A stretch of 64,000 nt of DNA from a virus. Lineage: Duplodnaviria; Caudoviricetes. The stretch's first letter is position 1. Each line of letters begins with the position of its first letter. Position numbers and translations under genes: made by a program. The stretch lies in the IMG/VR virus record IMGVR_UViG_3300042350_003801, one strand, 5' to 3'. A model generated the notes under the pieces. The model was not told where the DNA came from and ran no database searches. It was given only the letters and a program-made list of their open reading frames with translations. Shown here one piece after another: positions 2,014 through 58,055 of the stretch.

Positions 2014-2585
2014 ACTCTATTCCCCCATTGAATCTCGGGAAATGCTTCTTTAACAACATCGAAGGAAATGTTATACTTTTCTTGTAGCTTTTTATCTGTT
2101 ACAAAACAAATAATTTCAGCCTCACGAGGATGTAGACCTTGTAGCAGATTGATGAACATTGTTTCTCGGCGAATTTTAGATAATTCTGCATTTCCACCGT
2201 GAATGAAGTTTCGGAAATTATTATATTCCTTGCGAATAGTTGTTCGGTTATTACTACCATAAGAATCTAACATCTCAGTAGTCTTTAGTTGCTTATTCAT
2301 ACTATCTGAAAAGGTTGTATCATTTCCAACAACACCAATTTCCCTGGCATCGGCAAATGGAACATCCCCCGAGGGAACTGCCGAAACTAAGCTCGGGTCA
2401 TAATTCCAAATGAATACTGCCATCATAGATGGGTCCTTATATTCTTGAAGAACTTCTACTTTTTTGGCATTAGAACGTTGTTTTACAACAAGGTCAAAAA
2501 CTTCAAATAAAAAGGGATTGGCTGGAAGTTTTTTAGGCGTAGTCACCTTCGTCGTCTTCGTCTGTGTCGTCATAATTTTGATCAA
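2010..2585 (-). CDS. conserved T4-like hypothetical protein (likely start MTTQ at 2573)
   Basis: ORF track; start lies inside the remnant 3' end of the upstream gene. Confidence 0.7.
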   Translation of the reverse strand: MIKIMTTQTKTTKVTTPKKLPANPFLFEVFDLVVKQRSNAKKVEVLQEYKDPSMMAVFIWNYDPSLVSAVPSGDVPFADAREIGVVGNDTTFSDSMNKQLKTTEMLDSYGSNNRTTIRKEYNNFRNFIHGGNAELSKIRRETMFINLLQGLHPREAEIICFVTDKKLQEKYNISFDVVKEAFPEIQWGNRV

Positions 2586-2634
2586 ATGTTACTGCGTAAA
2601 GTATGTCTGGTTTGATAGGCCCGTCGCTATTATA
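2555..2634 (-). repeat. displaced original 3' end of the 2839-3060 gene; 80-bp imperfect direct repeat of 2858-2937
   Basis: 71/80 identical by manual alignment; encodes YNSDGPIKPDILYAVTFDQNYDDTDE versus YNYDGSIKPDILYAVTFDQNYDDTDE. Confidence 0.95.
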
Positions 2635-2791
2635 GTAACAAAAACCAATAAGAGCCAAAAACTCTATTGATTTTATAGACGCTTCATAGCAGATGCTAAA
2701 TGGTAAATAACCTTTTTAGTCTTAATTCCGCTCCACGTCCGTAATCGGTGTACTCCACCGATACCCGAAAAGTATTAACTAGCCGAGCGTC
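2612..2791 (-). ncRNA. orphan TnpB omegaRNA-like gene (29-nt leader, scaffold, putative guide)
   Basis: 2657-2762 homologous to the tnpB 3' region 55697-55804 with a compensatory stem change; own TAAATA promoter at 2794-2799. Confidence 0.8.
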
Positions 2792-2937
2792 TTTATTTAT
2801 CTAACTTTTGTTTGTGGATAACTGAAAATACTCTATTCTCAGGCGTCCTCATAATCTTCTTCGTCTGTGTCGTCATAATTTTGGTCAAAAGTTACTGCAT
2901 AAAGGATATCTGGTTTGATAGACCCGTCGTAGTTATA
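2635..2937 (-). mobile_element. non-autonomous, tnpB-less derivative of the tnpB element, carrying a recoded host-gene 3' end
   Basis: same junctions (ATGTAT left, TTACTAT right), same leader and same scaffold as 55695-57089. Confidence 0.75.
2794..2799 (-). promoter_or_regulatory. T4-type late promoter (TAAATA) for the orphan omegaRNA
   Basis: GATAAATAAAG directly upstream of the leader; same context as 57004-57009. Confidence 0.7.
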
Positions 2938-3060
2938 CATCTCAGGGTGAAGTCTAGGAGCCGGGGGATAAAACTTGGATGCTATAAATCCAATAATACC
3001 ACCGAGCATTAAAAAGCAAAGAACTAGTAGAACAGTTAGAGCAGTTAGTAGGCTGAACAT
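2839..3060 (-). CDS. small membrane protein with N-terminal transmembrane helix and acidic tail; 3' end supplied by the inserted element
   Basis: hydrophobic N-terminus; last ~32 codons lie within the element. Confidence 0.7.
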   Translation of the reverse strand: MFSLLTALTVLLVLCFLMLGGIIGFIASKFYPPAPRLHPEMYNYDGSIKPDILYAVTFDQNYDDTDEEDYEDA

Positions 3061-3212
3061 TTTAGTTTTCTCCTGAATGTTTTTTAGTTATTTTTAACTC
3101 AATCTTCAGGTGAATTTCTTTTGAAAAAAATGAAACTACCTTAGCAATTCTAAAATTGAATAGTCCCTCCGTTTTTTCCTGCTTTTTACTGCGGAGCATA
3201 AACTCCACACCC

Positions 3213-3566
3213 CTATTTAGTTTTAACTTTGGCTCTCCTTCCCGGTCTCTTGTCATAAACATATTTCTCGGCGTCGTTAATGAATGATTCCAGGTAGGTC
3301 TTAATACGCCGAGCAAAAGGCTTTGAGAGGTGCCCATAAGCCTCTCTAAGGTAGCAGTGGCGAGGGTCCTGCCCACCCTCAAGGTATTCGGACAATTCTT
3401 GTATGGTGGTCTTTAGATTGACTACTGTGGGGCTACCCAAAAAATCCTGGGCATCAGTTCTTCTAAATTCTTTTTGCTGAAGATATGTATATAAATTAAG
3501 AATGAACTTACTTTCCCCAAAGGCGAAATCAATTGCTCTTTCAACATCAATGTAAACTTCTTCCAT
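3213..3566 (-). CDS. hypothetical protein
   Basis: ORF track; operon packing. Confidence 0.65.
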   Translation of the reverse strand: MEEVYIDVERAIDFAFGESKFILNLYTYLQQKEFRRTDAQDFLGSPTVVNLKTTIQELSEYLEGGQDPRHCYLREAYGHLSKPFARRIKTYLESFINDAEKYVYDKRPGRRAKVKTK

Positions 3567-3802
3567 TACAGAATTTTCTGCTCCTTTAGGAATAGGATTG
3601 TATCTTTACAACCGCCCAATTTTTTATTGCCCATTAAAACTTGAGGAAAAGTTGTCCCCTCACCAAACTCATAGTAAAAATCATCTTTTGAATAATGCTC
3701 ACCAAGATTATAAACAACGTGTTCTAACCCAGCAAGGTGCATCACTTTTTTAATTTGGTCGCAATATGGGCAACAGTCTTTTGAGTAAATTACGAATTTC
3801 AT
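3566..3802 (-). CDS. glutaredoxin
   Basis: CPYC active site; TFPQV and GGC motifs. Confidence 0.9.
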   Translation of the reverse strand: MKFVIYSKDCCPYCDQIKKVMHLAGLEHVVYNLGEHYSKDDFYYEFGEGTTFPQVLMGNKKLGGCKDTILFLKEQKIL

Positions 3803-4056
3803 TTTTGGGTTTCAATATCGGAGATTCTTTTTCTTAGGGTGTCTATTTGTCTCTGCTTGCTTTCATCTTCAGCAGCTTTTCTCTGTGCATCTGCGCTCTG
3901 CTGAAGTTTCTCTTGGTTACTTTGTCGCTGCTGTTCTTGTTCTGCGGCGATTTGTTCTCTTTTTTCTACAGAGTTTTGAGCAGAGGTTGAACGAATAACC
4001 CGTCTGCGTGTTTCTATGTTTGAATTATCTTCGCAAAATTGTTGAAAGGTTTTCAT
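3799..4056 (-). CDS. Gln/Glu-rich coiled-coil protein with a capsid-targeting-like N-terminus
   Basis: starts MKTFQQFCED. Confidence 0.55.
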   Translation of the reverse strand: MKTFQQFCEDNSNIETRRRVIRSTSAQNSVEKREQIAAEQEQQRQSNQEKLQQSADAQRKAAEDESKQRQIDTLRKRISDIETQK

Positions 4057-4079
4057 CCTACTTTTTAAATTAGAACTAT

Positions 4080-4286
4080 TTAGAGGTCAAAAATCTTTCC
4101 AGCCGCAGATTGCTTATAGAACTCCAATTCTTGTCTCAGTTTTTCGTTCTCGGAAAGCAAAGAAGTAACATTTGCATTTACTCGTTCTGATTCAGTGAGA
4201 TTGTTGCGAAAAACATCAAGAGCAGTTTTAAATTTGGTAACAAACATTTCAATTGCGGGTGAGAGGGTGTGAATCGTCTGCACCAT
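4080..4286 (-). CDS. hypothetical coiled-coil protein
   Basis: ORF track. Confidence 0.5.
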   Translation of the reverse strand: MVQTIHTLSPAIEMFVTKFKTALDVFRNNLTESERVNANVTSLLSENEKLRQELEFYKQSAAGKIFDL

Positions 4287-4429
4287 CCAATGACTTGACG
4301 AATAGTTCGGCGAACTTTTGCATTCGTTCAGGAATGACGCTAGATGGTTGCTCGCTGATTGCCTTGCGAAGACTATCCATCTCTTTCCATTCTTCTATTG
4401 TCATTGGTTCGGTTGCATTCATTTTTTAT

Positions 4430-5574
4430 TTAGAGTTTAGTGAAGTTTACAGAGTAGTTTTCGTTTTCTTTAGATTTAAAGAATAGTTGCTGGGTTACAT
4501 TATCCCAACCAAAGGTATTCGGTTGTAGGTCATCAAGAAACTCATCGAGAGTTAACTTATCAGTTTCTCGTCTGTAGAACCAAATAGTGAAACTATCGGG
4601 CTCTTCTTCGGTTTCAATGAATTTCGTTGAAAGTTTTTTTGTAATTTCAAAGAAACCTTCAAAGGGTTGTTGAGTCTCCGCCATTGTCAATCTTTTTAAG
4701 AAGGGTTTCTTGAAGGGTTTTTAGGGCCTCGTATTGTTGGTCAACTACAGAGATATTCTCAATAGAAACAAGAATTTCACCTATTAGACGAATCACTACA
4801 GGCTTTTCAGTTCTAGATGCAAAACTTAGTGCATTGCGAATATGTGAGGCGGCTTCACTAAGTTCTTCTTGCACTCTTTCAGAAATTTGGTTCATTGTTG
4901 GTTTTGCAGGGTTTTGAGTTTAGGATAAATCGTTTCAGCTAGATGATACCGGCCACTATCAAAACTATCATACCAGCCAGCCTCTCTGTTGGAAAGAATT
5001 TCTTCTAGTTCTTTTAGAATAGAATCAAGCATTTCCGGCGGGTTGGGTAGAGATGGAGTTGGGCCGTAATCTGTGATAAGAGACGCTGTTCCAAAAGTCT
5101 CTTTCATATAAACTGGATCTCGGTCTGTTTTTGCCATTGTTTTAGTGAGTTGTGTCTCTGGTAATAGTTGGATAAATTGGTTCAATTTTACTTATGTTGC
5201 ACCAATCTGGTTTTTCCTTAAAGGTGCTACAAAGTTTTTGTTGCTCAGTTTGAGTTTTTGTGGTAAGTTGCCTATGAATGCAGGGAATGAAGACAACTCC
5301 ACAAACTATAGTTGCGGTGATTACATCAATCATCCGCCGAAACAAAACGTTGTGGATGTTGAGTAATTACAGAGTTCCAAACTTCTGGAAACTGCAAGTC
5401 AACTCGCTCAATAGAATATTCTAGAAAGGCAATTGCTGCATCTAATGCTACATCTGGATTTTCAGATTTTTCACGAGTATAATAGAGCATCTGTTTAACG
5501 TGTTCAAAGTTAAACAGAAGTTGTTCCATTTCACTTAATGAATCAAAAGAAGAAATGTAATGTGCGTCAAACAT
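4430..5574 (-). CDS. run of small hypothetical ORFs (4430-4690, 4659-4895, 4892-5185, 5142-5345, 5326-5574)
   Basis: contiguous overlapping minus-strand ORFs; no recognisable motifs. Confidence 0.5.
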
Positions 5575-5576
5575 GA

Positions 5577-6650
5577 TTAAATGAATCCTACAATAGATTT
5601 TGATTTAAGTTGGCTAGAAAAAGGCTGACGATTAAAGACTTCAGCTAGTGAAACCTCTTTTTCAAAAGGTGTTTGTTCAAGTTTAAGAGCCTCGGACACC
5701 GTATTAGCCTGCTGAGCTGTAAGATTCTCAAAATTAAGAATATCAAAGCACCGGCCAGGGCGAATAAGAGCAGGATCAATTTCTTTAACCGAAGGAAGAT
5801 TTGTTGTAAAAATAATCTTCTTATGTTGATTGCTAACTAATCCATCCCCAATATTGAGGAATTTCATAATCATATGATTTCCGTCCTTTCTCGGCCTAAG
5901 GAAAGTGTCGGAATCCTCAAGAACCAAAAGTTGACTATTATCATCACCAATAAAGTTGGCAAAGAAACTATCGTCTTCAAGAATCTTTACATCGTAGGAG
6001 ACGATAGCATTGCTTTTAGTATGTGCAATAAGACCCCGTAGAAATGTAGTCTTTCCGGTTCCAGGTGGACCAATAAGAATGAGAATAGAAGCCCTGGACT
6101 TCATATATTCATCATAATAATCTTCAAGTGACTTTTCACCGAGAAATGGATAGAACTCTTTAATTGGATAGTTGTCAGTTAAAACCGGAAGAGTTATGCT
6201 ATCACCTTTTCGGTTGTAGACCCATTCAATCGATGAAACAACTTCCTCAAAATTATCTTTAAAGAGCTGTTGCACTCTTTGAACCTCTTGCTCTTCTCCG
6301 AAAATTTGAACACTTGTTGAGTTTCGGTGAATAGCGCGAATTTCAATAACACATTGTTCACTCTTAAGAAGAAATGAATATTGCGTCTGCGAAATAACGA
6401 AATCTGGTAAAACCGCTTTTACAAACTCTTTGAGATTTTCTGGATTAGTGTAAAACTTGTAATCGGCCTTAAATACATTTTCTGAATTTTCCCAAGAAGA
6501 GTTGAGGAACTTGCCGAGAATGAAGTCTGAATAACAAATTTCTTGATAAGAGATGGAGTCGTTTGGCATTTCCTTTTTCATTGGTTCGTTCACATCATAG
6601 AACATTTTCGAGCGTGTTGGGTAGTAGGTGGACAGTTTTGTAACCGTCAT
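5577..6650 (-). CDS. AAA+ ATPase
   Basis: Walker A GPPGTGKT, Walker B LLVLED, TTN...IDPALIRPGR second region of homology. Confidence 0.9.
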   Translation of the reverse strand: MTVTKLSTYYPTRSKMFYDVNEPMKKEMPNDSISYQEICYSDFILGKFLNSSWENSENVFKADYKFYTNPENLKEFVKAVLPDFVISQTQYSFLLKSEQCVIEIRAIHRNSTSVQIFGEEQEVQRVQQLFKDNFEEVVSSIEWVYNRKGDSITLPVLTDNYPIKEFYPFLGEKSLEDYYDEYMKSRASILILIGPPGTGKTTFLRGLIAHTKSNAIVSYDVKILEDDSFFANFIGDDNSQLLVLEDSDTFLRPRKDGNHMIMKFLNIGDGLVSNQHKKIIFTTNLPSVKEIDPALIRPGRCFDILNFENLTAQQANTVSEALKLEQTPFEKEVSLAEVFNRQPFSSQLKSKSIVGFI

Positions 6651-8434
6651 AGTTGGTAATAATCGTCTTTTGGCTTGCTCTTTTGAAGTTTAATGAAATC
6701 TTCCGCCCGGTCGTATGAACGAAAAAATATCCTGTGCGGCGGAAAACTGGTTTCCCAATAATCCCAGTACACAAAAAAACGTTTATACTGTGGAACATAA
6801 ATGGTTAAGCCTTCTATGTCTGTTGTTTTTTTGATTCTGTGACTCATTTTTTGGGTTGCGTTTTTTGGAGGGTATAATCTTTTGCTTTTAAAGCATTCCG
6901 TTTAATATATTTTTCCATATCAATTTTATCTTTAAACCAACAAGTCTTCTTTTCGCCCCTATCTGAATGTTGCAGCTCAAATGGAAAGCTCAGATGAAAA
7001 GGCTTTGCATTCGGCTGTTCAACTGGTAGCGGGGCATTTGCAGGAGGATTTACCTTTGTTGTTGCATTGAGATTTCTACGCTTTTTTGCCACTTTCTCGT
7101 CCTGCTTCAAATGCTGCTTTTAACCAAGATAGAAAAACTCTCTCGGCTTCCTTCTTTTGCAGTTCGTCACCATCTTTTAAATAATGGTCACAATCTCCGA
7201 AAAACCTTTCACTCTTAAGAGAGAAATATTCAAGATAATAAAACCATTCGTCAAATGTGCTTTTTGTTTCCATTATCAACCCTCAAAGTCTTTAAATAAT
7301 TTTGATAACGGAGAAATTTTTGAATCGTTGGTTCTACCCCTAGACTCTCACAACAAAAAGTGTAACTAAGGAACTCGAACCAGGGGGCAGTGGAATCAAA
7401 ATCACTCATCATCTTCTTCTTCAGGTTTAAGGTCATAGTAGCACATATCTTCTTCATATCGGTGAAAAATACTACTACACGCCTCAACAAACGAATTTGA
7501 GATTTTCATAACATTCTCGTGACTGTCCTCAAAGTTATTCGTCAAAGAATCAATAAAATCTTCAGAAGGAATTTTAGCAAACAAAAGAGTAAGGGCGGCA
7601 ATCAAATAACCACCAATCCAATGGGCAGGAGAAACATCTCTCATAACTAAGATTCTATCAAAAGTGCTCGGCTCATCTTCTTCTAATTCTTCATCCTCAC
7701 TATAATATGCGATTCTCTGCATTCCGCAGAGCCATACTAATTCCATCATTAGATAGTTTTGCCCGTCGCTATCCAATGGCAATAAGTCTTCTTTTGTTGG
7801 AACCTTTCCACACTGCAAAACCTTAATAATCTCATCTGGAACATCTTCCAGTTCAATGTCTTCATAAAGAGCAGAATCCAGATTATAGCGGCTTTGTAAA
7901 CATTCAATAAACTCAACGGTAAATTCTGATGTGGATTCACTTTCAGCCTTAAGAGAGGCAACCATACTATTCAGTTGGGTAAAATCAAGTTCTTCAGTCA
8001 CAGTTTTGGTTCCTCACTTTTTTTAACATTTTTGACAAGTTCTCTGATAAGGAGACGGTATTCAATTTCCATTCTTAGACGGACTAATGGATTTTTTGGA
8101 TGATTATTCATCAACCACCATAAACCAGCAATCTTAACCCCGAGAAATTTAAGATTAAGAATAATGTATTCGGCAAACCTCGGTTCTATGTAAAGAAGGT
8201 AAAACAAGAAGCCAAAAAAGATTATAAGAGTTTGAAAATAAAGATTCATTTTTTGTGGAGTTTAATTGTTTGCTCTGGGCCAATTTGGACTGGACAATTG
8301 GGAACCGCTTTTCGGAGTTCACGAAAAATATGAACTTTTTGTTTAAGTGATAAGTTAGCAGATTTAACTAATCTTTCAGAAATGTCCACAAGTTGATTGC
8401 AAGTAAGAGTAGTTACAAGTATAAAAGGAAGCAT
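6647..8434 (-). CDS. run of small hypothetical ORFs (6647-6847, 6844-7110, 7076-7279, 7402-8001, 7998-8249, 8246-8434)
   Basis: ORF track; ATGA overlaps. Confidence 0.5.
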
Positions 8435-8446
8435 TATCTTCTGTCC

Positions 8447-9226
8447 TCAAATTTTAATAAACAAGTTTGGATTATAGCCCGTGTTTTGTCCGGGATACCC
8501 GACGGGATTACATATAACCCGACACTCTCCAATTTTGTAATCAAAAGGAGTATGCGTATGCCCGTGGATAAAGTATTTAATTTGAGGGTGTTTCATAATC
8601 AACTCATCTAAATCACTACAATACGCACTATTACACGATGAAGTTTTATACTCATCTGCAACGGAGCGATAACTTGGAGCGTGATGACTAATCACGAATA
8701 CATTCTCTTTGAGAGTTTCAAGTTGATTGAGAAGATAATCCCTACTTTTAAGATGAAAGTTTAGCGTATCTTGTGCCCTCAACTTTCTATAATTGGAACC
8801 AATACGAATGACTTTATAATCATTCATATATTGCTCCGCATCCATCATTTCTATAGGATTTCCATTACGAAAGTTAGTCCATAGAGTGAACCCCACAAAA
8901 GCCCAATCCCCAATCTTAATGGTATCATTCTCTAATAGATGGAAGTTATTGGAAAGATGCGCCCTTAGGGTTTTAAAGGTTCCTTCATAGTTAAATCCGA
9001 AGTGTTCGTGATTTCCTAACACATAAAGAACTTGATTAAAGTTCTTGGAACAATTCTCCAGAAATGTATCGTAAACATTGTGAAGGTACCCATCAGTCTT
9101 AAAATACTTAACCGAAAGAATATCTCCCGCTAAGATTAGTACATCTCCGCATCCTAAATCTGGAAGTATTTGACCAGAAATATAATGGTCAAGGTGGATA
9201 TCCGAAAAGGCCTTAATTTTTATCAT
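8447..9226 (-). CDS. calcineurin-like metallophosphoesterase
   Basis: SDIHLD, AGDI, LGNHE, SHHAP, HGHTH motifs. Confidence 0.9.
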   Translation of the reverse strand: MIKIKAFSDIHLDHYISGQILPDLGCGDVLILAGDILSVKYFKTDGYLHNVYDTFLENCSKNFNQVLYVLGNHEHFGFNYEGTFKTLRAHLSNNFHLLENDTIKIGDWAFVGFTLWTNFRNGNPIEMMDAEQYMNDYKVIRIGSNYRKLRAQDTLNFHLKSRDYLLNQLETLKENVFVISHHAPSYRSVADEYKTSSCNSAYCSDLDELIMKHPQIKYFIHGHTHTPFDYKIGECRVICNPVGYPGQNTGYNPNLFIKI

Positions 9227-9451
9227 CTTTAAGTTCGGTAATTTCTTCCTGAATCCGACAATGGAGTTCTTTTAGTTGAGTTGTAGAAACATCATAGTCG
9301 TCAAACTCATTATACTTTTTAATTGACTTAATTGCCACGGAAAGGCAATAATCAAGATTTTGGAGGTCGTTCAAATTAAGATTCATAGTTCTTTCTTAAT
9401 GAAGAGTTGATGGTTACACCCTACTAGATTTCGCTGGGTTGTGGGTATTTA

Positions 9452-9474
9452 GTGGACGGTTTGGGTACTGTCAC
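9452..9474. repeat. dispersed palindromic motif GTGGACGGTT-N5-ACTGTCAC (one of at least 12 variants)
   Basis: variants at 10057, 18561, 20002, 22485, 27069, 27159, 28483, 28611, 30826, 31135, 32089, 59632. Confidence 0.8.
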
Positions 9475-10001
9475 AAGTCGTTAAAAAGAGGAACGAACAA
9501 CAAAGTCTTACCGTCGTTCAATAAGGTATGCATACCAATTAGTTCATAAGTGGCATCACTGGCGGCATCCCAGGCGGCATCCCAGGCGGCATCCCAGGCG
9601 GCATCCCAGGCGGCATTCCCGGCGGCATCCCTGGCGGCATCCCAGGCGGCATTCCCGGCGGCATCCCTGGCGGCATCCCAGGCGGCATTCCCGGCGGCAT
9701 CCCTGGCGGCATCCCAGGCGGCATTCCCGGCGGCATATCCGGCGGCATATCCGGCGGCAGCCCCGGCGGCAGCCCCGGCGGCATTCCGGGCGGCAGACCA
9801 GGCGGCATTCCCGGCGGCGGAATCTAGGGCGCGGTAGCGGCGGGCAACCTCTTCCCATTGGTCAGCGGTAAGACTATCCATAAACCGCCAGAAGTTCAAG
9901 ACGGTTTCGTAGTTTGGTCCTAGAAAGTCTTGTGGGTTAGTAAGAACTTCTGGATTTTCTAGTTCGTTGGCGAAATTTTGATGGGCTTTGGAGTAATTCA
10001 T
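9471..10001 (-). CDS. Ala-rich repeat protein, paralog 1 (22 AAxx units)
   Basis: conserved N-terminus YSKAHQNF...FLGPNYETV and C-terminus ATYEL...VPLFNDL shared with three other ORFs. Confidence 0.85.
9555..9818 (-). repeat. 12-bp tandem array GCCGCC-NGG-NAT, 22 units, with a 36-bp higher-order period
   Basis: read directly from the sequence. Confidence 0.95.
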
Positions 10002-10082
10002 AAATTCATTAAGATGTGATCACCATATCGCAAACAATGGAGCGACGGTTAAATTGGTGGACAGTTGAGCAACTGTCGGGGT

Positions 10083-10490: not shown

Positions 10491-10539
10491 TGTTTTAGTT
10501 CTTTAACTATTATGAGTATACCACACCATCTTGATTTTG

Positions 10540-11340: not shown

Positions 11341-11348
11341 AATTAAAA

Positions 11349-26691: not shown

Positions 26692-26764
26692 CGACCAATA
26701 GGAGATTTGAACTCCTGTAACCTACTAGACAGGTAGGTGTCCTAGACCACTAGACGAATTGGCC
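26692..26764 (-). tRNA. tRNA-Asp (GUC)
   Basis: canonical cloverleaf; CCTAC-CT GTC TA-GTAGG; AGGAG-TTCAAAT-CTCCT. Confidence 0.95.
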
Positions 26765-27756: not shown

Positions 27757-28041
27757 CGAGAACGGCGTGACTCGAACACGCGACTTACTGCTTAGCTTAC
27801 CACTACGGATTTCCCCGCCATTTCTGTTTGTGGTCTGGACCATCTCTTCATCTTATCTTACGACTTAGATGCTTCCCGTATGGCCTCTACACGTTCAGGA
27901 TTTCTCCCGCTTCGCTCGGGATTGCCATAGTCTTACGACTTTAGGGTTCCCCGAATTTGAGAAGTTACATTTATGAAGTTTCCCTCGTAAAGCTCCTATT
28001 TTCGAAGGCAGTTGTTCTAAATCCAACTGAACTACGTTCCC
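27757..28041 (-). tRNA. tRNA-Arg (UCU), split by a group I intron (exons 28041-28005 and 27795-27757)
   Basis: acceptor GGGAACG/CGTTCTC; spliced loop CT-TCT-AA within stem ACTGC/GCAGT. Confidence 0.9.
27796..28004 (-). mobile_element. group I intron (209 nt, no ORF)
   Basis: core elements AAATTCGGGGAA (P), GGCAATCCCGAGC (Q), GTAGAGGCCATACG (R), AAGAGATGGTCCA (S); U-G at the 5' splice site; terminal G. Confidence 0.9.
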
Positions 28042-33479: not shown

Positions 33480-34670
33480 TTAAAGTTTAAAGTTTGCAAA
33501 GGCTGTAGGACTAACATCTTGTTTAATTCCACCAACAACATAACTCGAGATATTCTCTTCTTGTGGTGGAACTTGTTCATTTCTACTATTTAACCATTTC
33601 TCGGTCCAGGGTAATGGATTATTCTTAGATGAAATATCATACAGGGGTTTAAATCCAATGGCTCGCATTCTACGATTGGCAATCCATTCAATGTAATTGC
33701 AAAGTAGTTTTTCGCTGAGTCCGATCATTGATCCATCTTTAAAAAGGTAATGAGCCCAATTTTTTTCTTCATTTACCGTATTTTCAAACATACGGTAACA
33801 AAGTGCTTCTTCTTCTCTGGCTATCTGAACCATATCTAGGTCATCGCCATTTCTCCATTTAGTGAGGATATTCTGAGTTAAGAATAGATGAAGTCTTTCA
33901 TCAAGGGCAATTTTAGAAATAATTTTTGCCGAACCTTCCATTAGTTCGCGTTCGCCAAATGCGAAACTACAGGCAAAAGAGATATAAAAACGAATGCCTT
34001 CTAAAATGTTAACATTCATCACCGCCCGGTAAAGTTTCCGCTTTAGTTCATAAAGCTCTTGCTTTCCCAATGGAACTCCTTCATTATTAAATTTCCATAG
34101 TTCAGATGAACCATACTGTTGAGCAGAATTAATAAAATCATCATAAGATGCAGTAACACTAGATGCTCGCTCTAGAATCTTCTCATCATCAATAATGTGG
34201 TCAAACACTTCTGACGGGTTGCTGGTATAGACATTCTTAATAATGTATGTATAAGAATAACTATGAACCATCTCCATAAACTGCCAGGCAATCATACAAG
34301 ATTCTAGTTCTGGCAAAGAGCAATAAGGAATGAAAGCCATTCCTGGACCTCTTCCTTGAACTGAATCCAACATAATCTGATACTTCAGATTGGAAGTAAA
34401 AATATGCTTTTGATATGGAGAAAGTTTTAAATAATCAGTGCGATCTTTTTGAAGTGGAAACTCTTCTGGTCTCCAAAATGCACCCAGTTGATCCTGCGTA
34501 AGGCGATAAAATGCAGGATATTTATGGACATCATATCTTTGAACTCCTAGGGGTTTCCCAAAGAACATTTTCTCTTTTGTTGTATCTACGTTTGTTGAAT
34601 TAAAAACGGTCATTCCCGTAACCTCAGATGCTACATCCTTCACAATAATCCTCTCCTTCACTTGTTTCAA
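33480..34670 (-). CDS. nrdB: ribonucleotide reductase class Ia beta subunit (true start may be slightly downstream)
   Basis: FWRPEE, LDSVQG, EMVHSYSY, LEGIRFY, DERLH. Confidence 0.95.
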   Translation of the reverse strand: MKQVKERIIVKDVASEVTGMTVFNSTNVDTTKEKMFFGKPLGVQRYDVHKYPAFYRLTQDQLGAFWRPEEFPLQKDRTDYLKLSPYQKHIFTSNLKYQIMLDSVQGRGPGMAFIPYCSLPELESCMIAWQFMEMVHSYSYTYIIKNVYTSNPSEVFDHIIDDEKILERASSVTASYDDFINSAQQYGSSELWKFNNEGVPLGKQELYELKRKLYRAVMNVNILEGIRFYISFACSFAFGERELMEGSAKIISKIALDERLHLFLTQNILTKWRNGDDLDMVQIAREEEALCYRMFENTVNEEKNWAHYLFKDGSMIGLSEKLLCNYIEWIANRRMRAIGFKPLYDISSKNNPLPWTEKWLNSRNEQVPPQEENISSYVVGGIKQDVSPTAFANFKL

Positions 34671-37434
34671 TAGTATTAATCAAATTTTCTAGTTCGTTTA
34701 CCTGTTCAAGTTCCACTTCAGCAGAATCAGAATCCTTCTTACTATCGTATGTATTATGATAATACAGCGTCTTGACCCCCATCTTGTATGCATAAAGAAC
34801 TTCGCCGAGAATAAGACTCATTGGGACTTCCTTATCGGGGAACATCTCTGGATTGTATGCAGTATTGGCACTGATTGACTGGTCAATAAACTTTTGAAGA
34901 ACCGCAACAATGTTAAGATAACCAATATTAGACGGGGCATCCCATAGTAGACTATAATTATTCTTTAAAGATGAATATTGTGGAACAATTTGCTTAAGTC
35001 TACGCTTAACCGATAGATGTTCTCTTGGCATTTCAATACCATTTGGGGCATTTAACATCAGGCTTGATGATTCACCGGGCATCGCACAACTGAGAGTAGA
35101 ATGTCTCAAGCCATATTGTATAATGTCTTGCCGCAGTTGTTCCCAATCGTGCTGTAGTGGAACCGAACAAATTTCATCAACATCTTTCTTGTAAGTATCA
35201 ATAGGAAGAATACCATCTGCATACTTCGTTCTACCAAAGTATTCACAATGGCCGCGTTCTTGTGCAATCTTATTAGATGCCCTTAAAAGGAAGTATTGAA
35301 TACTTTCACCCAGTCTATGGCAACTATCCCAGGCCGATTGTTCGTGATAAGATTGACCAAGTTTAGCAAGATAGTGAGCCAGACCCATAATACCAATTCC
35401 TAGAGACCTTCTCGCCCTTGTTGAAATTTCCGCAGCCTTAACAAGATAATCTTGCCATTCAATCAACTCTTCAAGAGCCCTTACAATCAATTCACAGCAC
35501 TCCTCTAGTTCCTTATCGTTTTTGATTGTTCCAACATTCAGTCCTCCGAGAATACACAAAGAAATTTCTGCCAGTTCATCTTCAAGGCTTTGAATAGGAT
35601 GAACCGGCAAAGTTACCTCGACACAGTTATGAACCAAAATTCCATTTGCAAAGAAGTTATGCGTTCCCTCTACTGTAATGTCATAGACTGGGATTTCTTC
35701 TTCTAGGTATTCAATAGTTCTATATTTATTTTTAACTTTTTTAATTCCATCATCCCATAGAACAACTAGCTGATCTGTCCCCTGAATATCTTTTGCCTCA
35801 ACATACCCACGATTTTCTGTGAAGACTTTATGCTCAGGTGTTAAAATAACCCGACCATCATTAAGAGACAATACTTTCGCGCTGGGAGATGTTTGAGCAA
35901 ATGCTGTGATTGGACTCCAAACTCTTTCACCTTTTTCAGTATCGTAAGAAAGAACTTGAATTTTAGGAACATCGCTTTCTTTGCGAAATGAAACCTCTCT
36001 TTCTCTATCGAGAAAATAATCCTCCAACTCTCGAATCTCAATTTCAGCACTGCATAGTTCCCAACAGGAACCAATGGATACTGGATACTCAATTCTAATT
36101 TTGGTGTCACCAGCAACACAGAGGTTGCTCATACTAATATGGTCTTTAAAAGAACTATGAGTATTGCAATGGTCAATATTCATAATGTAAATGCGACCAG
36201 TTTCGCTTCTTTCTTTGAGAATATTCAAAATAAGTTCCTGGGCTTTTACTTTACGCTTAGGAATAGTCGGATCATTCTCATATTGAACATAAAGGTCATC
36301 AAAACGTTCAGTTCCAAACGATTCTTCTAGATTGGGAACGTGGTGAGGAGAAAATAGAGTAATTTCTCCATCTTGAATATAACGCTCATAGAATAGTTTT
36401 GAAATCTTGATTGCATAATCAATATTTCTCACTCTGTTTTCATCATTGCCCTTATTATTCTTAAGGACAATAATATCTTCAATCTCTTGATGCCAAATGC
36501 TAACGTATGCCGTCATACTCCCTTTTCTTACGCCACCTTGATGGCAAGATTCAAGAGACGCCTGAAACTTTTTAAGATATGGAATCAAACCCGATGAAAT
36601 AACTTTACCCTTACGAATTTTACTCCTAATGCCACGAATTTTACTAACGTCAATACCAACACCGGCTCCACCTGAAACGTATTTCATCATTGCTCCATCA
36701 GATGCAATGATGCTGTCAAGTGTATCATCTACATCAATGAGACAACAAGATGCAGCCTGCTTATCTGGCGTTCTGACACTTGCCATTACGGGTGTGGGCA
36801 GATTAATCTTATGCTTACTTACAACCTCATAATAACGCTTAACATATGATAGCCTTACATCTTTTGAATAATTTGCAAAGATTGTAAGAGCAATCATAAT
36901 ATACATAAACTGAGGCGTCTCGAAGACCTGTTTAGTATCACGGTCTTGAACAAGATATTTATCTTCAGCCTGCTTAAGACCAGCATAGGTGAAAAGAAAA
37001 TCTCGGTCGTGGTCAATGAAAGAATTTACGGTATCAATTTCTTCTTTTGAATATTTGGTGTAAATATCTGCATCATAATATTCTCGGGCAATGCAAAAAT
37101 TAATATGTTCTTCAAGATGTGGCATATCAATACGGCCACCGTATAAACGCTTACGAATAGAAAAAAGAAGCAATCTAGCCGCAACATATTGATAATTTGG
37201 ATGGTCCAAACTGATTAAATCCGATGCAGACTTAACAAGAATCTGCTGAATTTCATCAGTTGTAATTCCAGCATAAAACTGAAGACCAGAGTTCATTTCA
37301 ATCTGCGAGGCAGATACATTGGCCAAACCAACGCAAGCACAATTCACCATATCGTGAATTTTTTCTAGCATCAATGGCTCAACATTGCCATTGCGCTTAA
37401 CTACAGTAATACCATTGCTCATTTTTTCTTCCAT
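34624..37434 (-). CDS. nrdA: ribonucleotide reductase class Ia alpha subunit, with intein
   Basis: N-terminal ATP cone (VVKRNG), SNLC...E, MPGESSS, C-terminal CEGC. Confidence 0.95.
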   Translation of the reverse strand: MEEKMSNGITVVKRNGNVEPLMLEKIHDMVNCACVGLANVSASQIEMNSGLQFYAGITTDEIQQILVKSASDLISLDHPNYQYVAARLLLFSIRKRLYGGRIDMPHLEEHINFCIAREYYDADIYTKYSKEEIDTVNSFIDHDRDFLFTYAGLKQAEDKYLVQDRDTKQVFETPQFMYIMIALTIFANYSKDVRLSYVKRYYEVVSKHKINLPTPVMASVRTPDKQAASCCLIDVDDTLDSIIASDGAMMKYVSGGAGVGIDVSKIRGIRSKIRKGKVISSGLIPYLKKFQASLESCHQGGVRKGSMTAYVSIWHQEIEDIIVLKNNKGNDENRVRNIDYAIKISKLFYERYIQDGEITLFSPHHVPNLEESFGTERFDDLYVQYENDPTIPKRKVKAQELILNILKERSETGRIYIMNIDHCNTHSSFKDHISMSNLCVAGDTKIRIEYPVSIGSCWELCSAEIEIRELEDYFLDREREVSFRKESDVPKIQVLSYDTEKGERVWSPITAFAQTSPSAKVLSLNDGRVILTPEHKVFTENRGYVEAKDIQGTDQLVVLWDDGIKKVKNKYRTIEYLEEEIPVYDITVEGTHNFFANGILVHNCVEVTLPVHPIQSLEDELAEISLCILGGLNVGTIKNDKELEECCELIVRALEELIEWQDYLVKAAEISTRARRSLGIGIMGLAHYLAKLGQSYHEQSAWDSCHRLGESIQYFLLRASNKIAQERGHCEYFGRTKYADGILPIDTYKKDVDEICSVPLQHDWEQLRQDIIQYGLRHSTLSCAMPGESSSLMLNAPNGIEMPREHLSVKRRLKQIVPQYSSLKNNYSLLWDAPSNIGYLNIVAVLQKFIDQSISANTAYNPEMFPDKEVPMSLILGEVLYAYKMGVKTLYYHNTYDSKKDSDSAEVELEQVNELENLINTIETSEGEDYCEGCSI
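35626..36120 (-). mobile_element. 165-aa mini-intein in NrdA
   Basis: NL|CVAGDT ... LTPEHKVFT ... FFANGILVHN|CVE; no endonuclease domain. Confidence 0.95.
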
Positions 37435-43559: not shown

Positions 43560-43578
43560 TATATCTTATATTTACTCC

Positions 43579-46170: not shown

Positions 46171-46181
46171 AATGTTTTCAA

Positions 46182-48436: not shown

Positions 48437-48439
48437 TAA

Positions 48440-49765: not shown

Positions 49766-49771
49766 TCATTA

Positions 49772-50812: not shown

Positions 50813-50819
50813 ACGTTAA

Positions 50820-53318: not shown

Positions 53319-53683
53319 CCGTTAAGTAGTGCTTCGTATTTTGACTGTAGCACTGCATTTGGCTTAGCTAGTGTTAACATCTTATCAGAATTAATGACAA
53401 ATCTATTTGAATCGGTATATTCTAATAGATATGGAGAAAGTGTAGAGAGATTTGCATCTTCTATAACAAATGGCTCAATCATAACCCATTCATTTTCTCC
53501 GTCTTCATCTACATTTTTAACTAGTTGAGTAATCAGAATAATATGTGGAAAAACTACAATCCAGGCTTCTACTTCTTTTTTTCTTTTTGGGAGTGTTATT
53601 TTCTTTTTCGCTTTTTCTCTTGTCGATTGCGGTGCCGGGGCAGCTTGTGGCATATTAACTTCAGTTAGCATTGTTTCAATCAT
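53315..53683 (-). CDS. hypothetical protein
   Basis: ORF track; sits between hsp20 and gp43. Confidence 0.6.
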   Translation of the reverse strand: MIETMLTEVNMPQAAPAPQSTREKAKKKITLPKRKKEVEAWIVVFPHIILITQLVKNVDEDGENEWVMIEPFVIEDANLSTLSPYLLEYTDSNRFVINSDKMLTLAKPNAVLQSKYEALLNG

Positions 53684-53710
53684 TTCATTCTTGTAAAATA
53701 GTAAAAAAAT

Positions 53711-53750
53711 AGCAGGGCGGTATCTGATATGTGCCAGATGCCCTGCTTTT
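53711..53750 (-). terminator. terminator downstream of hsp20
   Basis: AGCAGGGC...GCCCTGCT stem flanked by A/T runs. Confidence 0.7.
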
Positions 53751-53786
53751 AATTGGCAACGATAATTAGGGAGCAGCCCGTTCTAT

Positions 53787-54218
53787 TTAGAACCTATAGT
53801 CCTGTCTTTTTTCGTGCTCGGGCACGTGGCGATCAATAGAAATGGTTAGAAGACCGTTAACAAAAGTTACAGTTTCAACTTTCCAGGTTTCTGGCAAAAC
53901 TCTTGCCCATTTAAAGTTGCGAAGAGCAACTCCTCTTTCAATGTATGTATCGGTTGATTTTTCATTCTTGGCTCCTTCCACGACAAGTTTTCCACTTTCA
54001 GTGTAGACTTGGATTTCCGAACTATTGAAACCGGCAAGTGCAATTTCTACTCTACGTCGGGTATCAGATTCTTGAACAATATTAACTGGAGGGTAATTTG
54101 TATATGTCCCGGAAAGAGATGTTACTCTATCAAAGAAAGTATCAAATCCGAGAGAGTATCGGTCAATATCATCAAAAAATTTTGATAGATTGGCAGTTGC
54201 ATAGCGCGTGATTGTCAT
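53787..54218 (-). CDS. hsp20: small heat shock protein
   Basis: NYPPVNI, EIALAGF, RGVALRNF, NGLLTI. Confidence 0.95.
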   Translation of the reverse strand: MTITRYATANLSKFFDDIDRYSLGFDTFFDRVTSLSGTYTNYPPVNIVQESDTRRRVEIALAGFNSSEIQVYTESGKLVVEGAKNEKSTDTYIERGVALRNFKWARVLPETWKVETVTFVNGLLTISIDRHVPEHEKRQDYRF

Positions 54219-54323
54219 TTGTTTCTCCTTTTAAGCGAGTGTTTTAATTGCAAGACCCCTAAGGCATCGTGCTACGCTTATTTAGCAGAAAATGATTGAA
54301 AAATAAAGTGAGGAAAGCCGCAT

Positions 54324-54776
54324 TCACCCGTTCGGTGTTTCCACCTTTGAGGTCTTCTTCTTTCCACCAATAGTGTATTTTGAAACCAATTCGTAATCCT
54401 GACGTTCTTTATATGTAAGAACCTTAATAAGGCTCAGAGGAGCCATATCTTCAATTTGTTCTGGTCTTACAATATTGATTAGTCCCCAATCACTTAAAAG
54501 TTTTGCAATCCTATTACGTCTCCGAACATCATCTTCAGATAGAGTGCAATACTTACCATCAAGAGCAAATAGTTCTTTATATGAAATGATATAGTATTTT
54601 CCTGACTTATGAAGAATGTGAGCACTCTGGTATAGTTTCTTTTCGTGCTTACTTGAAATACCTACACGCTGTAGGGTTTCTTTAACAACTAGAAAAGTAT
54701 CTGGTTCATCAAGTGTTACTTCAATCATCAGAGAGGGATTCCAATCAACGTATCCCTCTTTATTCAATTCACTCAT
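54324..54776 (-). CDS. regA: translational repressor RegA
   Basis: FLVVKETLQRVGISS...KLYQSAHILHKSGKYYI. Confidence 0.95.
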   Translation of the reverse strand: MSELNKEGYVDWNPSLMIEVTLDEPDTFLVVKETLQRVGISSKHEKKLYQSAHILHKSGKYYIISYKELFALDGKYCTLSEDDVRRRNRIAKLLSDWGLINIVRPEQIEDMAPLSLIKVLTYKERQDYELVSKYTIGGKKKTSKVETPNG

Positions 54777-55165
54777 TTTCTCATTCCACCTTTATTCAAT
54801 CTTTGTTTGATAAAATTTATCTCTTCTCTATTTAGAAGTCTTAGGGCTTCTAATGCCCGTTTATCATTGTAACCATAATATTCTTTAATGGCGGCTAGAT
54901 TCTCTGCATCTTCTTTTTTAACCCAAGGAGTGTATCTCTTTTTCTTTCTCAAAGAATGTAGATAAAAGGCATATTGCATATCCTTAGAGATATAAGGATA
55001 TTGATTCAGTTCATTGGCAAACAGAATCGTATCAAGATGCCCAGCAACACACTTATTGACAATATAAGGAGTATAGGAAGAAATATTTTCAGGAATCTCC
55101 TCAATAAGATTCTCTTTCGAGAAATTGATTGAAGTTAGCCACTGTCCTAAATCCGGTGCAGTCAT
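54773..55165 (-). CDS. gp62: clamp loader small subunit
   Basis: YTPYIVNKC, LRKKKRYTPW, KEYYGYNDKRA. Confidence 0.9.
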   Translation of the reverse strand: MTAPDLGQWLTSINFSKENLIEEIPENISSYTPYIVNKCVAGHLDTILFANELNQYPYISKDMQYAFYLHSLRKKKRYTPWVKKEDAENLAAIKEYYGYNDKRALEALRLLNREEINFIKQRLNKGGMRK

Positions 55166-55683
55166 TTAACCTAGATCTTGTAAAAAACCCGTTTCAAGAA
55201 ATGCCTCTTGTTCCATATCAACAATAGGTGTTGCAAACTCAATAGGAGGATTTGCAGTTTCAAACGTTTCAGTGCATAGACCAAAAAGTTCAATAAGGGT
55301 TAGAGTATCTGTTACATCAATTGCCTTTAGGTCTTTTTCAATTACCCAGTCTTGAAATAGGTCAATCTCTTTCCAGGGGTCTTCGGAATAACCCCACGGT
55401 GGTTTAATGTCATTCATTATGCAGCTCCAGTTTTTAGAAATTCGGGTAGACCCTTATAAAGGCTATAGGCATACTGCCGTTGCTCTTCGGTTAGTGAATC
55501 TTGATGCAGTTCACTAAACTCCCCGGCGGGCTCTTCTCCTAAAAGGTCCATAACAATGTTTGGCTTCCAGTTGTCATATGCAAAAGGATTCTGCCAAGTT
55601 GAGTCTTCGGTTAGATTGTTATAAAAAACTGTTGCAAGTGTAGCCAGGTCGTCGGTTTGATTTCGGTTCATAATTAACTCCAT
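55166..55683 (-). CDS. two acidic hypothetical proteins (55166-55417, 55417-55683) between gp44 and gp62
   Basis: ORF track; the RBS of the upstream one lies in the gp44 remnant. Confidence 0.55.
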
Positions 55684-55694
55684 TCGATTTCATA
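55674..55694 (-). pseudogene. displaced original gp44 3' end (TAT GAA ATC GAA TGG AGT TAA = YEIEWS*), occupying the putative guide position
   Basis: matches the current gp44 end YELEFSG* at peptide level; abuts the element end TTAC. Confidence 0.75.
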
Positions 55695-55804
55695 GTAAAA
55701 AACTCTATTGATTTTCTAGACGCTTCACAGCAGATGCTAAATGGTGAAAATCACCGCTCAGTCTTAATTCCGCTCCACGCCCGTAATCGGCGTACTCCGC
55801 CGAT
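55695..55804 (-). ncRNA. cis omegaRNA scaffold overlapping the tnpB 3' end
   Basis: hairpin ATCGGCG/CGCCGAT; GGGCGTGGAG...TGAAGCGTC pairing typical of IS200/IS605 right ends; homologous to 2657-2762. Confidence 0.8.
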
Positions 55805-56901
55805 GAAATTTCTTTATCGGTTAGGCTGCGCCAACCTTCCTTTAAGATATTGATAGAGGCATTTAAGTCTCTATCATGTTTTGAGCCGCAAGACGGACAA
55901 GTCCATTCCCGAATGTTTAGAGGCATCTTGTCTTCCTTGTAACCACAAGAACTACAAGTCTTACTAGAGGGAAAGAAGCGGTTAATCTTAACCAAGACTT
56001 TTCCATACCAGTTGCATTTATACTCTAACATAGAAACAAAAGTAGACCAGGCTGCATCAGAAATAGACTTCGCCAGTTTGCGGTTTTTCAGCATTCCAGA
56101 AACATTAAGGTCTTCAAGAACTATTAAATCAAATGTGTTCACTAAAGCGGTAGACACATTATGAAGAAAATAAATTCTTGAATTGGTAATGAATTCGTGT
56201 ACTTTAGCAACTTTTATTCGTTGCCGGTTGTAACGATTACTACCTTTAGTCTTACGACTTAAATGTTTCTGTGCTTTTTTGAGTTTCGCTTGGTTCTTGC
56301 GAAACCACTTGGGGTTGTTGATAACTTGACCATTTGAAAGAATGAACAAGTCTTTAATGCCCAAATCAATACCTACTACTTTACCCGTAGAGGGTATTGG
56401 ATTGAGTTCTTGCTTAATCAAGATAGAGACAAAATATTTTCCGGTTGGTGTTTTAGAAACAGTAATGCTCCTGAAGTCTGCTTCTTCGGGAATTTCGCGG
56501 TCAATAACAACTTTAACCCAACCAATTTTTTCAAGTCTAACTAAAGAGTTTTTTTGGTCAAGTTTAAACCTTTGATTATTGAGTCTAAAAGACTGCCTAT
56601 TTGATTTCTTCTTGTATCTGGGTCTTCCGAGTTTAACCTTTCGTTTCTTGTTGAAAAACTGTTTCTTAAATTCAATAAAGTCATCTCTTTTTTGTTGAAG
56701 GGTAGAAGCAGAAACCTCTTTAAGAAACTCAAATTCAGGAGTGTCTTTAAGCGTCTTCTCGGTAATAACTTCCTTGGAGTTGTTATTGAAGTTTTCAACA
56801 AGTTTATTCCAAACAAACCTGCAACAGCCGAAAGTCTTTGCTAGTAGAATTTCTTGCTCTTCAGACGGATAAATCCGAAACTTGTATGCTTTTAAGTGCA
56901 T
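55705..56901 (-). CDS. tnpB: TnpB RNA-guided endonuclease (IS200/IS605 family)
   Basis: N-terminal [12 protein letters not shown]; RuvC GIDLG, VLEDL, DRDLNAS; zinc finger CSSCG...CPSCG; all three acidic catalytic residues present. Confidence 0.97.
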
Positions 56902-56913
56902 CCGCTCTGTTTA

Positions 56914-57009
56914 TTGGTTGGCAATACTATTTAGTAAAGTTTTATTTTATAAGGGGAGAATTGCTCCTCCCCACCTGAAAAGCGCCAACCAACCAGGCAT
57001 CTTTATTTA
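56914..57009 (-). promoter_or_regulatory. double late promoter / antisense leader module of tnpB
   Basis: TAAATA at 57004-57009 and 56928-56933; hairpin 56953-56972; TTGGTTGGC (56992-56984) complementary to GCCAACCAA (56922-56914). Confidence 0.7.
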
Positions 57010-57065
57010 GTGAAGTTTTAACAACAAAAAACATAATGCACAATATAATTTTCAAGTAAGTTAAG

Positions 57066-58055
57066 TTAACCAGAAAACTCCAATTCATACATAATTTCAG
57101 TTACACAAGACATCATATTGATTTCTTGGTCTGCAACTTTCGTTGCTAAATCCTGGTATTTTGCCAGAATCACAATACAAGGAGGAATCGTTGCTTTAAC
57201 GATTTCTTCATTTTTCCATAACTCATCAAAGATTTTTCTGATTGTAATGGATGGGTCGTTATCAATGTTCTGAATAACCCATTTTCGCACATTAGCATAG
57301 TTCTTGCTCTTGATGTGCTGAAATAATTCAATAACTGAAACATCGGATGTTGTTCCAAGAATACCAACATCAATGATACCGTTTCTTGCATATCCCTGAA
57401 GTTCTAGAAGTGTTCTCCTAAAATCAGGATAATATTTACCAACATAAGATGCAACAACTTTTTTGTCAAACTCAATATTCTCAGTTTCTAAAATCGTGCA
57501 AACACTCTTAAAGAATCGGGCAAGAATCTTTTGTTTTTCGTCAGACGGAAATGTGAAGTCCTTATTAATACACCTTGAGCACAGGGCTTTGTCAATTCGG
57601 TTCTTGTAATTACAAGTGAAGATGAAGACACAATTTGATTGAAAGTCTTCAATAAATGCCCGAAGTGCAAGTTGTGCATCGTGAGTGAGATTGTCGGCCT
57701 CGTCAATCAGTAGAAACTTCTTCCCGGTTGATAAAAGAGAAATCGTAGAAGCATATGATTTAACTTTATTGCGAATCACATCAATGCTTCTTTCTTCACT
57801 TCCATTAATCTTTATGAAGTCTCTACCTAGTTCATCTGCAAGCGCAAGCGTTACTGATGTTTTTCCAGTTCCAGACGGGCCAGAAAGGAGAAGATTTGGG
57901 ACATTTCCAGAATCCCTCAGTTCAATAAAGTATGACTTTAATTGTTCAGGAAGAATACATTCATCTACTGTTTTTGGCCTATGTTTTTCAGTGAAGAGGA
58001 ACTCATTGTTCATTATATAAATTGCGGGGTTAATCAAATAGTTCAACGTCTTCAA
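57066..58055 (-). CDS. gp44: clamp loader large subunit (last ~7 codons supplied by the tnpB element)
   Basis: EKHRPKTV, GPSGTGKT, IDEAD, SRC motif. Confidence 0.95.
   Translation of the reverse strand: MKTLNYLINPAIYIMNNEFLFTEKHRPKTVDECILPEQLKSYFIELRDSGNVPNLLLSGPSGTGKTSVTLALADELGRDFIKINGSEERSIDVIRNKVKSYASTISLLSTGKKFLLIDEADNLTHDAQLALRAFIEDFQSNCVFIFTCNYKNRIDKALCSRCINKDFTFPSDEKQKILARFFKSVCTILETENIEFDKKVVASYVGKYYPDFRRTLLELQGYARNGIIDVGILGTTSDVSVIELFQHIKSKNYANVRKWVIQNIDNDPSITIRKIFDELWKNEEIVKATIPPCIVILAKYQDLATKVADQEINMMSCVTEIMYELEFSG

Follow-up and report, generated by a model that had tools for sequence, protein, structure and literature searches.

In bacteria, TnpB and its omegaRNA carry out restorative homing (Karvelis 2021, PMC8612924; Meers 2023, 10.1101/2023.03.14.532601). 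Two elements of this kind lie in a 64,000-nucleotide (nt) stretch of viral DNA (Duplodnaviria; Caudoviricetes; IMG/VR record IMGVR_UViG_3300042350_003801), the whole of which is called the window here. Both belong to one family of TnpB/omegaRNA selfish elements, common in the T4-like phages of lakes; one is a full element without tnpA and the other is non-autonomous. Like the TnpB elements of ISDra2 and Geobacillus, members of the family have a scaffold lying over the 3' end of tnpB, a guide in the right flank, an AT-rich 5' motif and no duplication upon insertion, and most copies have no tnpA. Unlike elements of the ISDra2 type, those of the window have a lytic T4-like phage as host, their predicted prey is a co-infecting genome rather than the sister chromosome after excision, and they lie inside the coding 3' ends of genes, accompanied by a substitute tail. 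The best reading of both loci, with a probability of about 0.6, is that they would represent RNA-guided homing between co-infecting phages.

In plasmid populations, IS605 TnpB can behave as a gene drive, spreading independently of TnpA when insert-free copies are cleaved and then repaired by recombination (PMC11870625). That drive is experimental and uses multicopy plasmids, whereas the window offers data from a natural population, a tail that restores the reading frame, and a shift of guide. Spread of this kind is called 'non-restorative homing' in PMC13565253, which names co-infecting phages as a theoretical target; the window would be a natural case of it, and an RNA-guided counterpart of phage intronless homing. 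The Seg and Mob systems of intronless homing in T-even phages share with the window the type of phage, the recombination machinery, inserts between or at the ends of conserved genes, presence/absence polymorphism, and a distinction of self from non-self by sequence differences near the insert (PMC13565253). In the window, however, recognition would be by an RNA guide, which could be changed at the junction and supplied as a protein-free cassette. The smaller of the two elements is comparable to PATE-like derivatives of IS605, with family ends and an omegaRNA needing TnpB in trans (10.1101/2023.03.14.532601), but it has its own late-type promoter box, is placed within a gene tail for which it brings a substitute, and occupies at least two loci with one deletion junction. 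The nuclease family, the guide logic, the homing role and guide-only derivatives are already known.

Elements that integrate into tRNA genes carry a replacement 3' end of the target gene, and their integrases use an identical attachment core. IStrons, like the elements of the window, live inside a gene without destroying it, but they do so by RNA splicing (PMC10690162). Unlike either of these, the window makes use of a diverged duplicate of a coding tail, with the old tail doubling as guide. The literature searched contains no description of the lytic-phage setting, of a natural guide shift between adjacent motifs, of a substitute tail combined with an old tail as guide in overlapping essential genes, or of a mixed IS605/IS607 character.

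The source of the window is a T4-like phage from lake water, with gp44, a B-family polymerase neighbourhood and a RecA/UvsX homologue. Both loci are read on the minus strand, and coordinates are those of the whole window. At locus A, a copy of ~200 nt with no open reading frame (ORF) is lodged in the tail of a conserved gene encoding 73 amino acids (aa), arranged as follows.

3060..2839, minus strand: conserved gene for a 73-aa membrane protein
2940-2935, minus strand: ATGTAT, in which TGTAT, the motif resembling a target-adjacent motif (TAM), is 2939-2935
2934-2839, minus strand: substitute (left) tail copy, the last 32 codons of the 73-aa gene, of the natural allele class ..EDYEDA
2838-2800, minus strand: spacer of 39 nt from the new stop codon to the left-end core
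2799-2764, minus strand: TAAATA late-promoter-like box and leader, fused to the scaffold at a deletion junction
2763-2635, minus strand: omegaRNA scaffold of 129 nt (140.9 bits), with TTAC at its end (2638-2635)
2634-2632, minus strand: shared TAT
2631-2533, minus strand: displaced native tail (right copy), within which the next gene (DUF6433) begins
2631-2614, minus strand: predicted guide A, the first ~18-20 nt of the displaced tail

At locus B, an intact tnpB element lies within the tail of the clamp-loader gene gp44.

58055..57066, minus strand: gp44, large subunit of the clamp loader
57107-57102, minus strand: TGTGTA, where empty alleles have TGTAT(C/T); neighbouring target site of the L014-type sister lineage
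57092-57087, minus strand: ATGTAT, in which TGTAT, the TAM-like motif, is 57091-57087
57086-57066, minus strand: gp44 substitute tail of seven codons, ELEFSG and stop
57076-57011, minus strand: locus-specific stretch from the copied tail to the conserved left-end core, identical in all inserts at the gp44 locus
57010..56902, minus strand: conserved left end and 5' untranslated region (UTR), with conservation in the family from ~57020 downstream
56901..55705, minus strand: tnpB, 398 aa
55805-55695, minus strand: omegaRNA scaffold (131.8 bits), overlapping the 3' end of tnpB, with TTAC at its end (55698-55695)
55694-55692, minus strand: shared TAT
55691-55674, minus strand: displaced native gp44 tail, EIEWS and stop, which is predicted guide B and overlaps the start region of the next gene

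This is much as a first-pass annotation of the window had described it: two minus-strand elements that share a TAAATA leader and a scaffold (measured here at 110-130 nt), with a start at ATGTAT and an end at TTAC-TAT. Relatives have further copies of the scaffold. A search of viral and metagenome contigs with a 17-nt scaffold word and with the TnpB protein found more than 25 related copies (L numbers below denote such contigs, X numbers lake runs).

A covariance model built from 21 family scaffolds and run on the window finds exactly two copies, at 140.9 bits (locus A) and 131.8 bits (locus B), while the next best match scores 15.5 bits, which excludes a chance resemblance of the two scaffolds. 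The fold is conserved across the 21 aligned copies, 7 of the 25 consensus pairs showing compensatory changes. Scaffolds of the long form have a right-end hairpin, itself with covariation, and this terminal hairpin is kept at locus A and partly deleted at locus B. The scaffold is unmatched in Rfam: at gathering thresholds the window gave just a group I intron and a tRNA, and three related loci searched at E <= 1 gave chance matches alone.

The protein encoded at locus B matches the Pfam families HTH_OrfB_IS605, OrfB_IS605 and Cas12f TNB, and it aligns with ISDra2 TnpB (8exa/8h1j) with E = 9e-73 and ~45% identity. In the alignment, the D/E/D motifs of RuvC (GIDLG, LEDL, HDRD) and the CxxC pairs of the zinc finger are in place, and the identical protein has been recovered in several independent assemblies. 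The kept catalytic motifs and the covarying scaffold of the ORF-free copy are among the points on which the earlier interpretation is supported. A nuclease-dead regulatory TnpB (TldR-like) was considered and is ruled out by the intact motifs. The middle of tnpB (56000-56500, minus strand) is 75-90% identical to that of L282 and L283, while the flanks are 89-97% and the left ends 99-100% identical, a mosaic that suggests gene conversion between TnpB copies.

Relatives that lack the inserts show what the two sites look like when empty. At locus A, nine insert-free alleles (L130, L128, L129, L286-288, L295 and L296 among them) have ATGTAT, or in one case ATGTAC, in front of the tail and show no target duplication; the carriers are the window and L292. 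At gp44, the empty alleles are those of L097 and L098 (flanks 88-98% identical) and of the more distant L017, in which ATGTAC precedes the natural tail and the next gene has its overlapping start; the carriers are the window, L099, L282-285 and L297-298. Both loci exhibit presence/absence polymorphism at an identical site among close relatives (flanks 88-98% identical), with empty sites undisturbed. Since the empty alleles carry the tail at the motif, the sequence now adjoining each right end is the displaced native tail. The first-pass annotation had foreseen this in two respects, namely that the old gene tail follows the scaffold and that insert-free relatives would read ATGTAT plus the tail that now adjoins the right end (those sampled have ATGTA(T/C)). 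A further allele, P0028, resembled an unrepaired insert but proved to be empty and to carry a point mutation.

Four sites can be compared with empty alleles (locus A, a pair of sites within gp44, and the L211 gene), and at each of them the guide match is preceded on its 5' side by TGTAT. It occurs in the window about once per 800 nt per strand, so that its recurrence is not due to chance, and from these independent sites TGTAT is inferred to be the TAM, as had been supposed when the motif was placed within ATGTAT. The motif is also found in L210, though the site there lies in another IS607-type element. At the right end of the element, CTAT occupies the position that matches GTAT of the target, and its own junction would therefore be spared as a target. 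Neither guide A nor guide B has a further match in the window with three or fewer mismatches.

The gp44 locus comes in two forms that differ in their guide. In lake runs X9 and X10 and in contigs L282, L283 and L285, the insert has a left side identical to that of the window, but its right end is followed by a further 16 nt of gp44 tail, so that the guide begins 16 nt sooner. This beginning lies at the neighbouring TGTAT of the empty allele, where the left copy has TGTGTA and the motif is lost. The tail duplication of this sister lineage is 28 nt long, with 24 of the 28 positions identical. The form in the window differs from the sister form solely by the missing 16 nt, located between TTAC and the TA(T/C) repeat. 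A like pair of forms, with other tail alleles, is seen in L010 and L011. Both gp44 forms thus put sequence adjacent to TGTAT in the guide position, and, whichever way the change went, this is hard to explain unless the position matters. The 16-nt difference suggests that retargeting could come about by a small change at the junction of right end and guide.

The tails themselves appear to be borrowed from the population. Two classes of C-terminus, ..EDYEDA and ..GNYT/GDYA, occur naturally in the 73-aa protein, and in the window the left copy is of the first class and the right copy of the second (the two tail copies are 86% identical). At gp44, the first 10 nt of the substitute tail are the natural allele of L097, after which there is unrelated sequence up to the stop codon; the 10 copied nt are part of the 28-nt duplication visible in the sister lineage. 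The earlier claim that each element begins with a copy of the host gene's tail therefore holds in full at locus A and for just 10 nt at locus B. The claim that the tails were recoded does not hold. Because they are natural allele types (the ..EDYEDA class, and L097 for the first 10 nt) with an ordinary level of mismatch to the guides, they are not specially recoded, and purpose-made recoding is ruled out. Nor are the self copies more mismatched than the sampled empty alleles: over the first 12 nt, the left copies differ from the guides at 3/12 positions at locus A and 5/12 at locus B, and the sampled empty alleles at 1 to 5/12.

In both host genes the stop codon overlaps the start of the next gene, and a duplication is accordingly needed, the old copy for the downstream gene and the new copy for the upstream one. 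The duplication most likely goes back to a single illegitimate join, which linked a guide-resistant allele, on the left side, to a genome bearing the insert and was kept because it restored the gene. L292, a second and diverged lineage with the insert at locus A, has the identical architecture, with the join at the stop codon and a spacer homologous to that of the window, but diverged. Its left copy keeps the conserved protein sequence, and its right copy shows five changed amino acids over 22 codons, with the first 12 nt still matching natural alleles. Most family copies have no duplication, and the upstream ORF of L008, L101, L213 and L001 has its stop within the left end. L211, which might have added a third clear instance of tail copying, has been downgraded to doubtful; its right copy is the natural tail (..YYGTPKELD), while its left tail, YVRSNVE, fits no natural allele and shares 14/21 nt. 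In L111, the terminase large-subunit-like ORF (2957-5110) that lies downstream of a family element has the unusual length of 717 aa and may contain an intervening element; L111 also has a possible short tail copy (8/9 nt). Exact-pattern scans for the locus-A tail found nothing, and a scan for the locus-B spacer found the known insert alone.

The small element at locus A is a derivative with an internal deletion, the junction (cttttcgggta|tcggtgg) fusing leader to scaffold. This junction is common to locus A of the window, L292 at the same locus, and L008 at a different locus. The element has the features of a non-autonomous derivative: no ORF, the ends of the family, and recurrence of a single derivative at different loci. 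It is a mobile, non-autonomous lineage, judging from the shared junction, and has kept the late-type promoter box, the scaffold and the right end alone. Another ORF-free derivative, L002, has a different junction. The TAAATA box of the mini element resembles ACTAAATA, a motif that occurs 10 times in the window, each time on the minus (coding) strand, where ~4.6 would be expected over both strands; examples are at 3214-3221, 56928-56935 and 57004-57011 (minus strand). From this bias, ACTAAATA is probably the core of the late promoter of the window phage. Two such boxes lie in the left end of tnpB at locus B, where TAAATA is at 57009-57004 (minus strand). Between promoter-like boxes, the 5' UTR of tnpB (56902-57010) folds into a long-range stem around a GC hairpin, with covariation between copies (the left ends of L105, L107 and L003 were compared). 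Perhaps the stem is a means of control, and it may regulate the expression of TnpB.

The right end of family copies is always TTAC, then TA(T/C/A). In full-length intergenic copies, a conserved left end directly follows (G/A/T)GTAT. Since the family shares a conserved left end, the left ends of the window are locus-specific just in the stretch between TGTAT and the core, and the first-pass annotation, which took them to be locus-specific altogether, was right to that extent. It was right also that there is no tnpA at locus A or locus B, a statement that covers the two loci, the window as a whole being without a profile scan for tnpA; close relatives, however, encode a TnpA of the serine-recombinase type. 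In L001, an 83%-identical tnpB is immediately preceded by an ORF for a serine recombinase (7678-8265; Resolvase, E = 2.5e-21), which runs into the start of tnpB, and more distant relatives have a similar arrangement of tnpA and tnpB. With close relatives such as L001 carrying TnpA, new sites may still be reached by transposition in trans, and the family does not count as a plain IS200/IS605. No Y1_Tnp was found in five related phage records (one of them complete) or beside the family copies examined, the window lying outside that profile scan. The five records have one to four TnpB genes each, and two of them have a resolvase.

Elements of the IS607 type end in GG, are inserted at GG and have AGGAG/GAGGG as TAM (PMC13565253). 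Relatives of the window elements have the serine-recombinase partner, but unlike IS607 their ends are not GG and their motif is not G-rich (PMC13565253); the right end is TTAC-TA(T) and the motif (T/G/A)GTAT. Features of IS200/IS605 are present: insertion 3' of an AT-rich TGTAT/GTAT, no duplication in most copies, and a hairpin at the left end. The family combines the gene content of IS607 with AT-rich ends and an AT-rich target motif, and so is of mixed IS605/IS607 character.

Some further copies are worth recording. In L210 (3067-3218), a family element is inserted, after ..CTTGTAT, into a different element of the IS607 type, whose tnpA and tnpB lie on either side of it. L281 (1480-1560, minus strand) has a right-end remnant with the last ~60 nt left, directly upstream of the promoter-like box of the next gene, and a derivative remnant is also found at gp44 in lake runs X9 and X10. 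In contigs of lake run X5 (junctions 55697-55699), the scaffold is joined to at least two further flanks, ..TTACTAT|TTAACT and ..TTACTAT|CATTAT, hence further insertion sites exist in that community. The records of L104, L105 and L107 (G002-G004) contain two to four TnpB genes each, some with other types of omegaRNA, and an IS607 of the resolvase type occurs in two records.

According to the model of homing between co-infecting phages, TnpB with either omegaRNA would, in a mixed infection, cut insert-free alleles that have TGTAT and a matching tail. Recombination by UvsX and gp46/47 would then repair the break from the insert-bearing genome, copying the cassette in the process. Of the recombination genes invoked by the first-pass annotation, UvsX and gp46 have counterparts here: the window encodes a UvsX-like protein and a gp46-like SMC/Rad50 ATPase, as well as a DnaB-type helicase. 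The phage's own genome would be spared, for the right end reads CTAT rather than GTAT and in the left copy either the first 12 nt contain mismatches to the guide or the motif is gone. The displaced tail would be transcribed as guide while still supplying the start of the next gene, and the second tail copy, taken from another natural allele, would close the frame between TGTAT and the left end so that the host gene survives. One TnpB could serve the protein-free omegaRNA cassette in trans. A wider claim may be put forward tentatively, at slightly less than even odds: that this is a natural RNA-guided gene drive of lytic phages, in which a transposase-free TnpB and the cassettes it serves in trans would invade the coding 3' ends of conserved genes in co-infecting relatives, remain harmless because they bring guide-resistant substitute tails, and retarget to the next TGTAT.

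A number of observations weigh against homing. The predicted empty alleles do have the tail at the motif at both loci, but no sampled empty allele matches either guide perfectly. The best match, L296, is mismatched at 1/12 nt and 4/20 nt, and the gp44 empties have 3-4/20 mismatches to the guide along with TGTAC as motif, which could be an escape or a mere synonymous variant. The left copies, as noted, do not exceed natural alleles in their mismatches to the guides. The scaffold at locus B is without ~19 nt of its terminal hairpin. The spacers at 2800-2838 and 57011-57076 had no source in a short-word search of all the loci retrieved. Between lineages the element and its flanks have diverged to a similar degree, so there is no sharp signature of recent sweeps. 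Among contigs of four lake runs covering locus B, none skips the element, a weak negative in that contigs drop minority variants. Finally, relatives encode a serine-recombinase TnpA, and for this reason ordinary transposition with vertical descent could explain much of the distribution.

One might therefore suppose that the insertions are passive and decaying: TnpA supplied in trans by a co-resident IS607-type element, vertical descent thereafter, a dead mini element, tail duplications that compensate for the insertions and are maintained by selection on the host genes, no drive between phages, and a TnpB that at most restores the donor site after excision. The TnpA of L001, directly upstream of its tnpB, the resolvase genes of related phage records, the commonness of remnants and deletion derivatives, the imperfect guides, and the like divergence of element and flanks are all what this account would lead one to expect. 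It fits less well with the lack of tnpA at either locus of the window, with a TnpB that is intact and identical across samples, and with a mini element that keeps its promoter box and a compensatory scaffold and has one deletion junction at two loci. It must also take as coincidence that the guide shift lands exactly on a second TGTAT, and it sits awkwardly with the persistence in many lineages of the locus-B copy, its right-end hairpin lost. On balance such passive insertion seems unlikely. The elements might instead be weapons of interference, with guides at essential or conserved genes and cleavage that kills or excludes insert-free competitors, copying being a by-product. One target is indeed a core gene of replication, gp44; the difference of 5-12% between related genomes may hamper recombinational repair; and a phage intron endonuclease that acts in this way is known from work cited in PMC13565253. 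However, the same cassette with identical junctions is found in genomes with differing flanks, which fits copying as well as killing, and the two outcomes are not exclusive. Interference as the main role is accordingly rather improbable.

It has also to be considered that the tail duplications are not selected repairs of a gene at all, but target-site duplications or scars of the chemistry of insertion or cleavage, for example the broken end of a recipient preserved up to the TnpB cut site. The left copy at gp44 ends 26-28 nt after the motif, close to the position at which TnpB-type nucleases (ISDra2 TnpB, Cas12f) cut. At locus A, though, the copy extends over ~100 nt, and in two lineages its end coincides exactly with the stop codon; a cut-site scar of fixed length is ruled out there. 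Most family copies have no duplication, and neither IS605-type nor IS607-type transposition makes duplications (PMC13565253). Such scars are a very improbable source of the duplicated tails. Homing between co-infecting phages is the favoured reading of both loci.

The phage of the window carries other elements that may be mentioned. A group I catalytic intron (RF00028, 66 bits) at 27814-28014 (minus strand), near a tRNA gene at 26692-26764 (minus strand), is another self-splicing or homing-type element of this phage. The ORF for the large subunit of ribonucleotide reductase (34624-37434, minus strand) has an intein splicing domain (PF14890) at residues 485-603. The sequencing runs in which the phage is found are lake-water metagenomes. 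Its nearest cultured relatives are Synechococcus phages, at ~70% identity, and cultured phages gave just weak similarity, to Synechococcus phages and to unrelated TnpBs.

In bacteria and plasmids, TnpB is known to skew inheritance in favour of its own transposon (10.1101/2023.03.14.532601; PMC11870625). The action of TnpB between co-infecting phages has so far been just a theoretical proposal. The two loci provide a concrete natural system, with defined guides, a candidate TAM, alleles that look susceptible and alleles that look resistant, and a guide-only cassette. They illustrate a way for an RNA-guided selfish element to reside within essential genes that overlap, the tail being duplicated and the old tail reused as guide. 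The two gp44 lineages, with one left junction and two guides, afford a rare natural look at a change of guide. If the system is active, then RNA-guided nucleases would join the ecology of homing endonucleases that shapes genetic exchange among T4-like phages.

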